A stretch of 9,718 bases of DNA from Promethearchaeota archaeon (GTDB lineage Archaea; Asgardarchaeota; Thorarchaeia; Thorarchaeales; Thorarchaeaceae), in contig JALVPN010000188.1 in the NCBI GenBank assembly GCA_027031765.1, positions 1 through 9,718 on the forward strand. The letters run 5' to 3'. Each line of letters begins with the position of its first letter. The first letter of the stretch is position 1. The translations under genes were made by a program, and so were the position numbers. Shown one piece after another: positions 6,849-9,718 of this stretch. The notes under the pieces were generated by a model, which was given only the letters and a program-made list of their open reading frames with translations, was not told where the DNA came from and made no database searches.

Positions 6849-8579
6849 GTGTCAGACTCTGAGAAGCTGGTCGAGTGGCATCACCGTGTCGTCGAGGTGG
6901 TCAACGAAGGTGTTGTCATCGTCCAGGACGGTGAGATTGTCCTGGCAAACGGTGCCCTCGCGAAGATGCTCGGCTACCGCGAGTCAGAGCTCACCGGCAT
7001 GCTGTTCGTTGACGTGGTGGACCCAATATTCCACCGGCACGGCGCAACAACCCTGGCGGCAATGAGCGAGGGCACATGCCGTATCAGTTTCAGAACCCGC
7101 CTCCTGCGTCATGACGGCCGCCCCATCCATGTGGAGGTCACCCCGACACCGGTGCTGTACAACGGCAGGCCGGCAACCCTGGCAGCCGTGCGCGACCTGT
7201 CCCGCGAACTCGACCTTGAGAGTACAGTGGGGGCCCTCGAAGAACGCTTCGCATCCCTCTACAACCTCTCGCCAGCAGCATACTTCACACTCGACTCTGA
7301 GGGCGTGGTGCGTCAGGTAAACCGCGAGGCAGAACACCTCCTGGGAGTACCGGAGGAGCAGATTGTGGGCCGTCACCTCGAAGAGTTCCTGCCAGAGCCA
7401 CCTGGCGACTACGATGTGGTCGGTGAGTTCATGCGGGAGGTCCTGATGGGAAAGCACATCCAGGGCGTCGAGATCGAGATGCTGCGTCCTGATGGCCGAC
7501 GACTGTGGGTGAGCGTGTCCTCACGACCACTGAGCAAGATTGGCGCCCACGCAGAAGAGACCGCCTTCATGGCCTTCGACATCACGCGGCGCAAGGCTGC
7601 TGAGGCACGCGTCCTCGAGGAGCGCCAGTGGGCCGACCTCTACCTTGGTGTCATGACCAACGACCTCAACGTCATCAACCAGAGCACACTGTACTCCCTC
7701 GAACTCGTCACCTCGACCGTGCGCCTCCCAGACAAGACCCTCTCAGTACTGCGCGAGACCGCATGGAACGTGCGGCGCTCGTCACGTATGATTGCCAATG
7801 TCAGGGCGCTCATCACACTGCGCAAGTCGCCACCTGAGAAGCGCAGGACCAACCTCTATGCCCACTTCCAGCGCGCACGACGTGAGGCCGACCGGGACTT
7901 TGAATGGAAGACCCTCGAGGTGGAGACCAACATCGAGGACGGCAAGTTCTTCGTCGTTGGCCACCAGTTCCTCTGGAGCGTGTTCTTCAACATCATGCAC
8001 AACGCCATGATGTACGACCCTGAGAAGCACGTCAGGATGGAGGTCACGGCCGAGTACGTCGACAACGGTTCAAAGGTGAGAGTGTCGTTCGCTGACCACG
8101 GGCCGGGTATTCCTGACTCCATGAAAGAGGAGCTCATGGATCGTGCGAGGTCGCCCGAGAGGCATGCCGGTGGCGCCGGCCTCGGCCTCACTTTTGTCTA
8201 CAGGTTCATCCGCGACCTCGGTGGCGACCTGTGGGTAGAGGACAGGGTGCCGGGCGACCACTCCAAGGGCGCGAAGTTCGTCGTCGAGATCCCCGCGTGG
8301 GTCGAGGAGGCGGAGGCCGCAACCATCCTGTTCTACAAGTCGGCCCACTGCGTCTTCTGCGGCCCGGTCTACGAGTCCCTGATGGCAGTCCTCGATGAGA
8401 TGGGCATGAGCAGGAACATGGTGCGGGTCATCGACGTGGACGACCCCAACGCCGGGGTCTCGGAGGACGAGCTGCCAGCCCTACCCACCATCCGCTTTGG
8501 CCAGAGCGAGCTCACGGGCTTCGTGTCGGAAGACGACCTCCGGGAACACCTGATGACCATGCTCATGTTCTCACAGTGA
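6849..8579 (+). CDS. PAS-PAS-HisKA(degenerate)-HATPase protein with a C-terminal thioredoxin-fold CxxC domain, 576 aa
   Basis: Two PAS/PAC domains (ANGALAKMLGYRESELTG; VNREAEHLLG...DITRRKAAE). DHp helix YLGVMTNDLNVINQ. N-box FFNIMHNAMMY, G1 DHGPGIP, G2 GAGLGL. These are followed by TILFYKSAHCVFCGP...VIDVDD...ALPTI...TGFVSEDDLREHL. Confidence 0.92.
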   Translation: MSDSEKLVEWHHRVVEVVNEGVVIVQDGEIVLANGALAKMLGYRESELTGMLFVDVVDPIFHRHGATTLAAMSEGTCRISFRTRLLRHDGRPIHVEVTPTPVLYNGRPATLAAVRDLSRELDLESTVGALEERFASLYNLSPAAYFTLDSEGVVRQVNREAEHLLGVPEEQIVGRHLEEFLPEPPGDYDVVGEFMREVLMGKHIQGVEIEMLRPDGRRLWVSVSSRPLSKIGAHAEETAFMAFDITRRKAAEARVLEERQWADLYLGVMTNDLNVINQSTLYSLELVTSTVRLPDKTLSVLRETAWNVRRSSRMIANVRALITLRKSPPEKRRTNLYAHFQRARREADRDFEWKTLEVETNIEDGKFFVVGHQFLWSVFFNIMHNAMMYDPEKHVRMEVTAEYVDNGSKVRVSFADHGPGIPDSMKEELMDRARSPERHAGGAGLGLTFVYRFIRDLGGDLWVEDRVPGDHSKGAKFVVEIPAWVEEAEAATILFYKSAHCVFCGPVYESLMAVLDEMGMSRNMVRVIDVDDPNAGVSEDELPALPTIRFGQSELTGFVSEDDLREHLMTMLMFSQ

Positions 8580-8653
8580 GGGGCCGTTGTGCTCTCGCAG
8601 CGGACACGTGCCACCAGCACCTGTGCACCGGACGACGACATGTCCCACCCCAA

Positions 8654-9010
8654 CTAGTCCACGGTAATCTTGTCGTCCTTCAGGTCTGGGCACTTGACCG
8701 CAATGACCACGACCTCGTTGTCCCCGGTCTCGAACCAGTGCGGCTCTCCGGGCTCGACCACGACCACATCGCCCTCCCCCACACTGTACGTCCTGTCACC
8801 AACACCCACCACAGTGCTCGCCATCGTCACGAACACCTCTTCGAGCTGCTGGTGGGCATGCGGTTCCGTCCTCGTGCGGGGCGGGATCTTCACCCAGATG
8901 AAGCCCGCGGTCGGGACTGGGGCCCTGAACTTGATATCTGCAACGTACTTCCGGCCGTATCCTCCTGCACCGATAAGCTCACACTCTGAGGCACGGTATA
9001 TCTTGACCAT
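8654..9010 (-). CDS. Cupin (cupin_2-like) metal-binding protein, 118 aa
   Basis: Motif 1 EPHAHQQLEEVF (HxH..E) and motif 2 GDVVVVEPGEPHWF. The His3-Glu metal ligand set appears intact. Confidence 0.9.
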   Translation of the reverse strand: MVKIYRASECELIGAGGYGRKYVADIKFRAPVPTAGFIWVKIPPRTRTEPHAHQQLEEVFVTMASTVVGVGDRTYSVGEGDVVVVEPGEPHWFETGDNEVVVIAVKCPDLKDDKITVD

Positions 9011-9044
9011 GGCCCATCACGCCATGTCGCCGCTCCGGCATGAG

Positions 9045-9053
9045 AAATACGTT
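9045..9053 (-). promoter_or_regulatory. Possible TATA-like element for the cupin gene
   Basis: The minus strand reads AACGTATTT, 35-43 nt upstream of ATG 9010. It is similar to the element before the GyrI-like gene. Confidence 0.35.
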
Positions 9054-9118
9054 CTGGTCTGTCAGGGGGCCGGGCCATGCCTGCCATGCCGGACGCGGCC
9101 CCGACACGTGTAGTGCGT

Positions 9119-9235
9119 CCCACAGCCCCCGGATATGGACACTCCCACCAGCAACAGGTCCGAGCAGAGTGGGGGGAGGGACAGGAGCCCACAGCCCCCG
9201 GATATGGACACTCCCGTCAGCCGGCGCCCAGAGCA
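9119..9235. repeat. Intergenic tandem duplication: 28-nt identical core plus 20-nt partly conserved extension, period 69
   Basis: CCCACAGCCCCCGGATATGGACACTCCC occurs at 9119-9146 and 9188-9215. The next 20 nt align without gaps at 11/20 (accagcaacaggtccgagca vs gtcagccggcgcccagagca). Confidence 0.95.
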
Positions 9236-9258
9236 CCAGCCCGGCATCGACCGCATCC

Positions 9259-9266
9259 TTTAAGTA
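9259..9266 (+). promoter_or_regulatory. Archaeal TATA box candidate
   Basis: TTTAAGTA lies about 50 nt upstream of ATG 9315. The reverse strand reads TACTTAAA, so it could also drive leftward transcription into the repeat. Confidence 0.55.
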
Positions 9267-9314
9267 GTGAATTCGTGGCCAATTGGACTGAACAACAAAT
9301 GGGACGAACCGGCA

Positions 9315-9704
9315 ATGTATCTTGAGCTGTCACTAATCCCGTTCGCCATCCTCCTGGTCCTGTTCCTATGTTTCTTCGTCACAGCTGAGGGCTCGAAATG
9401 GCAGAAACACCCACAACTCGGTGTCTTCGCCAGGTTCATCCAGGTGTCGCCACTCCGCGGCTTCCTGGTGTTCTTTGTCCTCACAATCCTCATGGTACCA
9501 TCGGTCCTGCTCATCATCCTAGGCTACTGGACTGATGCGGTCATCACAGGCACCGTTCCTAACACTACAACCCCCATAGTGAACGTGCTCCTCCTGCTGC
9601 TCCTCATCCTCTCTGGCATGATCCCCGTCCTATGGAGTCACTTCCGGACATGGCGCCAGGCCGTAAGGAGCGCAGCTGAGGTACGTGTCCGCACAATCGA
9701 GTAA
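9315..9704 (+). CDS. Small three-TM membrane protein of unknown function, 129 aa
   Basis: ATG 9315 to TAA 9702-9704. Three hydrophobic segments (LSLIPFAILLVLFLCFFV; FLVFFVLTILMVPSVLLIILGYW; IVNVLLLLLLILSGMIPVLW), a basic amphipathic C-tail and an upstream TATA candidate. Confidence 0.75.
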   Translation: MYLELSLIPFAILLVLFLCFFVTAEGSKWQKHPQLGVFARFIQVSPLRGFLVFFVLTILMVPSVLLIILGYWTDAVITGTVPNTTTPIVNVLLLLLLILSGMIPVLWSHFRTWRQAVRSAAEVRVRTIE

Positions 9705-9718
9705 GACCGGTCAGGAGG

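Follow-up and report, generated by a model that had tools for sequence, protein, structure and literature searches.

A CxxC thioredoxin-fold domain fused behind the ATP-binding domain of a sensor-kinase-like protein of Thorarchaeota that has lost its phospho-acceptor histidine

INTRODUCTION

Histidine kinases can respond to thiol oxidation, as in ArcB and RegB/PrrB, where the oxidation state of a cytoplasmic cysteine, a single residue in the PAS or DHp (dimerization and histidine phosphotransfer) region, tunes the kinase. The kinase scaffold can also outlive its phosphotransfer chemistry: in Caulobacter DivL a tyrosine replaces the phospho-acceptor histidine, and the protein has no redox domain and acts through a receiver protein. 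SasA and KaiB bring the thioredoxin fold into kinase signalling with domains that have no CxxC motif. The Asgard archaea are the closest prokaryotic relatives of eukaryotes, and signalling in them is experimentally almost unstudied. A census of archaeal two-component systems mentions only fusions of a receiver (REC) with thioredoxin reductase and does not list a kinase-thioredoxin architecture (PMC5847659). Here we analyse a 9,718-nucleotide stretch of DNA (the window), namely positions 1–9,718 of the forward strand of contig JALVPN010000188.1 from a Promethearchaeota archaeon (assembly GCA_027031765.1; GTDB family Thorarchaeaceae, hereafter the window's family), whose longest plus-strand open reading frame is a kinase-thioredoxin gene, i.e. 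a sensor-kinase-like gene ending in a thioredoxin-like domain with a CxxC motif.

RESULTS

Domain layout of the kinase-thioredoxin protein

The gene stands as a monocistronic unit with a 316-bp gap upstream and a convergent gene downstream, and the N-terminus of its product lines up with the N-termini of the orthologues. The product is a soluble, cytoplasmic PAS-PAS sensor-kinase-like protein with the following features.

6849–8579, plus strand: kinase-thioredoxin gene, 576 amino acids (aa), GTG start, stop codon at 8577–8579; order PAS-PAS-DHp-like-HATPase_c-linker-thioredoxin-like
6888–7208, plus strand: PAS domain 1, residues ~14–120 (Pfam PAS/PAS_9)
7239–7610, plus strand: PAS domain 2, residues ~131–254 (Pfam PAS_4 and TIGR00229)
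7614–7826, plus strand: DHp-like helical hairpin, residues 256–326, two long helices in the AlphaFold model
7659–7661, plus strand: codon of Asn271, at the phospho-acceptor histidine position of the H-box (MTNDLN)
7968–8297, plus strand: HATPase_c ATP-binding domain, residues 374–483 (Pfam HATPase_c, E = 7e-17)
8301–8321, plus strand: short variable linker VEEAEAA, residues 485–491, with a predicted local distance difference test score (pLDDT) <50 at 488–490 and no invariant column
8322–8576, plus strand: thioredoxin-fold domain (the tail), residues 492–576, 85 residues
8349–8360, plus strand: CVFC active-site-type motif (C501, C504; tgc gtc ttc tgc) at the start of helix 1
8481–8489, plus strand: cis-Pro-type motif L545-P546-T547 before strand 3, within the LPALPTI block, Pro codon at 8484

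The HATPase_c domain retains the N-box Asn385, the G1 box DHGPG (D416-x-G418) and the G2 box GLGL (G444-L-G-L). A preliminary description of the sequence had begun the tail with residue 492 at position 8322, put CVFC at 8349–8360 and the proline at 8484, and read VIDVDD and TGFVSEDDL in it, all of which are exact; its linker VEEAEAA behind the kinase core is likewise found, as WVEEAEAA directly follows the HATPase_c match.

The tail is a small archaeal thioredoxin-type domain

A profile of 52 family sequences of the tail (A2) was used for a search of PDB sequences and for AlphaFold2 modelling. Among the sequences of solved structures, the profile matched 1FO5 (E = 3.7e-6) and 1NHO (E = 1.4e-5), both small archaeal thioredoxins; their CxxC and cis-Pro motifs are in register with those of the tail, P546 falling on the VPT of both and the LPTI strand on the aVPTI of 1FO5. 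The AlphaFold2 model has the order strand-helix-strand-strand-strand-helix (β-α-β-β-β-α), with a mean pLDDT of 83.5 and a predicted template modelling score (pTM) of 0.73; in the numbering of the model C501 is residue 22 and C504 is residue 25, where helix 1 begins, which sets the CxxC at the helix N-terminus. An independent ESM Atlas model, of a Thorarchaeota PAS/HATPase_c cluster of 572 aa, superposed on the tail model with a template modelling (TM) score of 0.82 and a root-mean-square deviation of 1.6 Å, and the nearest language-model clusters to the tail were all of the thioredoxin/glutaredoxin type.

The motif residues are nearly unchanging. C504 and P546 are invariant in all 52 profile sequences and C501 is present in at least 90% of them, and every one of the 39 full-length family members carries both the CxxC and the cis-Pro-type proline, so that the conservation of the CxxC in homologues, which the preliminary description had named as a test of its thioredoxin/glutaredoxin-fold reading, is borne out together with the fold. 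P546 corresponds to the conserved proline that is cis in solved thioredoxins and, judged by alignment, is of the cis-Pro type here as well. Curated Pfam and NCBIfam cut-offs were not reached by the tail (Glrx-like 15.9 versus 26 bits, Thioredoxin 11.8 versus 23.5, TIGR01126 12.6 versus 107), yet the family profile reaches solved thioredoxins; the tail is therefore filed as a divergent member of the superfamily that belongs to no single Pfam family. It is a true thioredoxin-type domain, of the same kind as the small archaeal proteins MJ0307 and MTH895.

The fusion is old and confined to one family of Thorarchaeota

A word-indexed search retrieved 26 further 90%-identity clusters that share the tail, 562–614 aa long and for the most part labelled Candidatus Thorarchaeota; scanned exhaustively with HMMER, 1.84 billion representatives yielded only 34 clusters, namely the fused forms, their fragments and stand-alone proteins of ~110 aa. 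The phylum was represented by 400 genomes, and of the 85 that belong to the window's family 84 had strong tail matches (mostly E = 1e-27 to 1e-45), most of the strongest lying in frames of ~580–630 aa, and a genome of this family usually has two kinase-thioredoxin genes plus a stand-alone gene of ~115 aa; outside the family only weak matches (E = 1e-9 to 1e-18) were obtained, which are other small thioredoxins. When the kinase core alone was the query, all matches down to E = 1e-61 had the length and architecture of the Thorarchaeota family, and the next ones, at about E = 1e-29, were generic methanogen PAS kinases; from this gap it follows that there are no close thioredoxin-less relatives and no split forms. 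Thus, the kinase-thioredoxin family is confined to one family of Thorarchaeota, and the fusion is old and lineage-specific.

An artefactual origin, with a kinase gene and a separate thioredoxin gene run together through loss of a stop codon, frameshift or chimeric assembly, is refuted: one continuous frame recurs in those 84 genomes and in dozens of independent metagenomes, linker length is conserved among orthologues, and no close homologue lacks the thioredoxin domain or has it as a separate gene. The fusion that the preliminary description had left exposed to this objection is hence genuine. Nothing was found that speaks for an artefact, the only oddity being a single database protein of 156 aa (P0033). 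In this metagenomic protein a ferredoxin-like N-terminus (CTGCGLCAKDCP) passes into a thioredoxin-like domain exactly at a shared C-I-F-C-G, which looks like chimeric assembly or recombination at that motif.

Within the clade to which the window protein belongs, which lacks the H-box histidine (the His-less clade, see below), invariant columns make up 29% of the tail, more than of any other domain: they are 14–18% of the CA (catalytic and ATP-binding), DHp and second PAS domains and 4%, the lowest figure, of the first PAS domain. The invariant tail positions are C501, F503, C504, P506, the LPALPTI block, E561, D562, L564 and R565, and the acidic SEDDLR patch is nearly unchanged in the window's lineage. 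Public annotation calls these proteins only 'PAS domain S-box protein'. In the searchable literature we found no kinase-thioredoxin fusion, only expression tags and REC-thioredoxin-reductase fusions, in agreement with the earlier remark that this domain order was not known to have been described.

The phospho-acceptor histidine has been lost in the window's lineage

Alignment A1 comprises 26 orthologous clusters of the His-less clade, every one of which has S, N or Q at the H-box position occupied by Asn271; one further member (P0031) has Tyr there. The same column is His (MTHDLN) in a paralogue from the same genome and in 12 other, more distant family members. No HisKA family model matched residues 250–345 of the window protein (E ≤ 0.01), and the His-bearing paralogue gave only a weak HisKA match of 16.6 bits. 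In a maximum-likelihood tree of 37 DHp-CA-thioredoxin sequences, the His-less ones (N, S, Q or Y; 24 clusters) formed one group that requires a single change (support 87/78); with midpoint rooting this group was nested among the His-bearing sequences, one of which is its sister (99/99). Under this rooting the loss of the histidine is derived and the His-bearing form is ancestral.

Decay reaches the ATP-binding domain too. Asn385 (codon 8001–8003), the Mg-ATP asparagine by alignment to the Pfam model and the counterpart of EnvZ N347, is kept in the window protein; of the 26 A1 clusters, 19 have another residue there (Tyr in 18, His in 1), so most of the His-less clade also lacks a catalytic ATPase residue. 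The G1 and G2 boxes are kept. A REC domain was found neither in the window nor within 10 kb of the two orthologues P0027 and P0006, and the three REC genes of the genome all lie on other contigs. Because the H-box histidine is lost, HisKA models do not match and the Mg-ATP asparagine has decayed in most clusters, the window's lineage reads as one of pseudokinases, which would serve as an ATP-binding scaffold at most. H500, which directly precedes the CVFC motif, was considered as an alternative phospho-acceptor and rejected, since some members have R, K or D in its place.

A His-bearing paralogue carries a six-cysteine form of the tail

The paralogue lies on another contig (C151) of the same genome.

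L002:64–1815, plus strand: kinase-thioredoxin paralogue with the same PAS-PAS-DHp-CA-thioredoxin architecture, CxFC motif and H-box MTHDLNN

Its tail is of a six-cysteine form (CGCDNC...CLFC...KIC...PCC), whereas the window copy combines Asn271 with the CxxC only. The four extra cysteines occupy fixed places, two in a CGRxxC before strand 1, one after strand 3 (R-I-C) and one near the C-terminus, and are carried by the His-bearing members, by one His-less member (P0008) and by stand-alone proteins. All four have been lost in the window's clade, along with a five-residue deletion, and the CxxC is kept throughout except in one stand-alone protein that reads D-I-Y-C. According to thioredoxin topology, the accessory cysteines would sit at the far end of the sheet from the CxxC and may build a separate structural site, either with zinc or as a disulfide.

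The stand-alone six-cysteine relatives of ~110 aa (P0051, P0054, P0055, P0058, P0059 and P0062) occur in many Thorarchaeota genomes; none was found in the window's genome, which is 95% complete. Within the family, at least 12 genomes have the two kinase-thioredoxin paralogues on one contig (e.g. G350:C431, G353:C5, G342:C68 and G321:C67), mostly 17–20 kb apart, at up to ~34 kb, and at 83 kb in one genome. Since their DHp sequences are very similar and the genes often lie 17–34 kb apart on one contig, heterodimerization of the window protein with its His-bearing paralogue is conceivable.

A related thioredoxin, but not the fused tail, is linked to KaiC-like genes

The preliminary description had also seen a gapless likeness between the tail and a KaiB segment, which neither the KaiB Pfam model nor any profile or sequence search reproduced. 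Residues 485–576 gave no match to KaiB Pfam (PF07689); a six-frame KaiB search of the genome (E ≤ 0.1) produced matches on contigs C77 and C3 and none in the window; and the 64 PDB sequence matches of the A2 profile (E ≤ 10) included no KaiB or SasA chain. In the structural ranking of the tail, KaiB and the SasA N-terminal domain appeared to come below plain thioredoxins. No KaiC-like gene was present in the window or within 10 kb of P0027 and P0006, and the genome has at least four, on contigs C77, C144, C159 and others.

The genome's best match to the KaiB model is a different gene.

L003:1462–2525, plus strand: gene of a 107-aa CPFC thioredoxin followed by KaiC-like genes, contig C77 of the window's genome

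The CPFC thioredoxin gene shares its last 4 nt with the beginning of a KaiC-like ATPase gene, a second KaiC-like gene comes next, and a roadblock/LC7-like frame and a small Ras-like GTPase are encoded just upstream. A KaiC-like gene directly followed the CxFC thioredoxin gene in 18 of 18 orthologous loci of the order (the genome's own and L032–L048), of which 17, including the own genome, are from the window's family and one is from the sister family. The protein matched 1FO5 with E = 4.5e-18, KaiB chains with E of about 1e-4 and the KaiB model below its threshold (24.9 bits against a cut-off of 27); it is an orthodox MJ0307-type thioredoxin with weak KaiB similarity. With the kinase tail it shares 34% identity without gaps over 68 aa, FxKSxxCxFC and ALPT being common to both, at an hhalign probability of 99.2%.

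Gene neighbourhoods and other fusions of the module

The neighbours of the kinase-thioredoxin gene in the window are as follows.

1121–4209, minus strand: FtsX permease and ABC ATPase
4504–5154, minus strand: GyrI-like protein
5429–6532, plus strand: 367-aa membrane protein with seven transmembrane segments, no Pfam match
8654–9010, minus strand: cupin

None of them recurs within 10 kb of P0027 or P0006, and the loci of the stand-alone six-cysteine relatives contain peptidase M14, TPR and flavodoxin genes with no consistent partner; gene context therefore gave no partner. A proposed pairing of the seven-transmembrane protein with the kinase is thus not conserved in the lineages of P0027 and P0006.

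The same small thioredoxin module is also joined to other sensory proteins of Asgard archaea. In another Asgard family, a 668-aa protein (genome G081, L028:322–2328, minus strand) has the order PAS-thioredoxin-PAS-HATPase_c, a CVYC motif and matches above Pfam cut-offs; its H-box reads S-T-G-L-L-D-P-L, apparently (by eye) with Thr in place of His, and matches were obtained in 12 of 12 genomes of its family. It is a second, independent thioredoxin-kinase fusion with a SasA-like domain order. The same small CxFC thioredoxin module also precedes two V4R domains in a 485-aa protein of Jordarchaeia (L029:1480–2937, plus strand) and a cysteine-rich region of unknown type in a 302-aa protein (L026:720–1628, minus strand). 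So promiscuous a module is easier to explain as sensory or regulatory than as a housekeeping reductase.

DISCUSSION

What the tail may do

The fold, the motifs, the conservation of the fusion, the loss of the histidine and, under midpoint rooting, its evolutionary polarity are observations. As the kinase has lost its phosphorylatable histidine, signalling by the window protein probably happens at the thioredoxin end. The explanation that we favour is a thiol/disulfide switch on a pseudokinase scaffold, to which, the observed parts counted in, we give about an even chance. The redox state of C501 and C504 would be coupled through the seven-residue linker to the conformation of a dimeric kinase-like scaffold, and the His-less protein would signal by protein-protein contact or thiol exchange and not by His-to-Asp phosphotransfer. 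The redox activity and the direction of coupling are what we infer here: redox state would be the input that regulates the scaffold, which we prefer to a scaffold that gates a reductase, to docking on KaiC and to metal binding because the His-bearing ancestors already carry the tail.

Several points weigh against a switch. The tail falls below the curated Pfam thresholds (Glrx-like, 15.9 bits versus 26), and its CxxC dipeptide (V-F) differs from that of characterized reductases, which leaves room for a role in metal binding or a purely structural one; the gene neighbourhoods of kinase orthologues and stand-alone relatives indicate no redox partner; and the same domain in the ancestral His-bearing form means that its role need not depend on the loss of phosphotransfer. 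Nor is the orientation of the thioredoxin domain towards the kinase confidently modelled: when residues 255–576 were modelled together, the individual domains were good, the linker had a pLDDT <50 and the pTM was 0.67, so no inference on docking onto the kinase is drawn, and a complex prediction of two DHp-CA cores with the thioredoxin domain returned a score of 0.00 ('no answer'), which says nothing either way.

Coupling in the opposite direction would turn the tail into a signal-gated reductase, PAS sensing and ATP binding exposing or hiding the thioredoxin active site, which would act on specific disulfide targets, with no receiver being phosphorylated. This we hold to be unlikely. In its favour, the canonical output is missing (no histidine and no adjacent receiver) and the active-site surface (HCVFCGP, LPALPTI and G-F-x-SEDDLR) is the best-conserved part, as expected of a partner-recognition face; the His-bearing ancestral paralogues already carry the domain, however, no thioredoxin reductase or target gene is linked, and to our knowledge ATP-gated thioredoxin activity has no precedent. 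The proposal of the preliminary description that a redox-coupled output replaces a receiver domain is accordingly too simple. The ancestral form combines the same tail with an intact H-box histidine, and the tail therefore did not arise as a substitute for phosphotransfer. Cysteine pairs might instead bind metal, the two CxxC of a dimer, ancestrally with the four accessory cysteines, ligating zinc or an Fe-S cluster and reporting oxygen or redox stress. Cluster-binding glutaredoxins have CGYC or CSYC, a proline in the CxxC blocking cluster binding in glutaredoxins, and the tail has a CxxC without this proline; six cysteines stand in a fixed pattern in the ancestral form (CGRxxC, CxFC, one after strand 3 and one C-terminal), and the hosts are archaea of anoxic sediment. 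A metal sensor is nonetheless improbable, as the window's clade discarded the four accessory cysteines, their likely placement at the strand-1 end remote from the CxxC points to a structural site of their own, and the pattern of cluster-binding thioredoxin-like ferredoxins is not found.

The remaining alternative is SasA/KaiB logic in reversed order: the kinase-like protein would use its tail to dock on a KaiC-like hub ATPase, for which the stand-alone CxFC thioredoxin might compete. Of this idea, also raised in the preliminary description, the part that stood is indirect: a related CxFC thioredoxin is encoded directly upstream of a KaiC-like ATPase in all 18 loci, it gives sub-threshold KaiB matches, and the genome has its four or more KaiC-like genes. 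The tail itself has no KaiB match, KaiB and the SasA N-terminal domain seem to rank structurally below plain thioredoxins, neither the kinase gene nor its orthologues has a kaiC neighbour, and the closest stand-alone relatives, the six-cysteine proteins of ~110 aa, have none either; moreover, the invariant CxxC argues for chemistry over mere docking, and any pair of thioredoxin families can be expected to score high in hhalign. The operon of thioredoxin and KaiC-like genes is thus a real lead towards a SasA-like arrangement, if a circumstantial one; the arrangement itself we consider rather improbable. A wider speculation, which we regard as a long shot, is that Thorarchaeota may run an archaeal counterpart of KaiB/SasA/KaiC, with a redox-active CxFC module operonic with KaiC-like ATPases and its fused copies docking kinases or pseudokinases in a manner dependent on thiol state. 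If so, PAS sensing, redox state and KaiC-type ATPase signalling would be linked without His-to-Asp phosphotransfer.

Significance

The proteins make up a lineage-wide, strongly conserved signalling family, whose defining feature, a CxxC thioredoxin domain after the ATP-binding domain, is undescribed in the searchable literature. New here are the split between His-less/two-cysteine and His/six-cysteine forms, the tree, the N-box decay, the negative KaiB results and the homology to the KaiC-linked thioredoxin. The paralogue pair, one member with the histidine and six cysteines and the other with neither the histidine nor the four extra cysteines, is a natural comparison for what becomes of a histidine-kinase scaffold after the loss of phosphotransfer, and could show how archaeal signalling proteins read thiol redox state; a true KaiC link would tie proteins of two-component type to the signalling hubs that KaiC has been proposed to form in archaea.

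Comparison with known systems

As a fold, the tail is closest to MJ0307 (1FO5) and MTH895 (1NHO), its best sequence matches among solved structures, which have the same size (~85 aa) and the same minimal thioredoxin/glutaredoxin fold. Common to all are a CxxC where helix 1 begins, with a proline after it, the a-(V/L)-P-T-I cis-Pro strand and a G-x-P/S-x-E turn ahead of the last helix; MJ0307 and MTH895 differ in being free-standing and having CPHC or CPYC, while the tail is fused to a kinase, reads C-V-F-C, scores below Pfam thresholds and ancestrally had four extra cysteines.

As an architecture, it recalls SasA, in which a thioredoxin-fold domain is also covalently joined to a histidine-kinase core, and, as in SasA's setting, a related small stand-alone thioredoxin-fold protein is encoded beside a KaiC-family ATPase in the same genomes. 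The domain order is opposite, the KaiB-like domain of SasA being N-terminal, and unlike in SasA and KaiB the CxxC is invariant in the family tail, which shows no KaiB profile signal and no kaiC linkage; SasA further keeps its phospho-acceptor histidine and a cognate regulator, whereas the window protein has neither the histidine nor an adjacent regulator.

Pseudo-histidine kinases such as DivL likewise keep a PAS-DHp-CA scaffold under selection with the H-box histidine replaced, by Tyr in DivL as in the family member P0031. The window's family differs from DivL by the added conserved CxxC thioredoxin domain and by the lack of the Mg-ATP asparagine in most orthologues. From the redox-tuned kinases ArcB and RegB/PrrB, finally, it is set apart by having a whole thioredoxin-fold domain appended after the ATP-binding domain.

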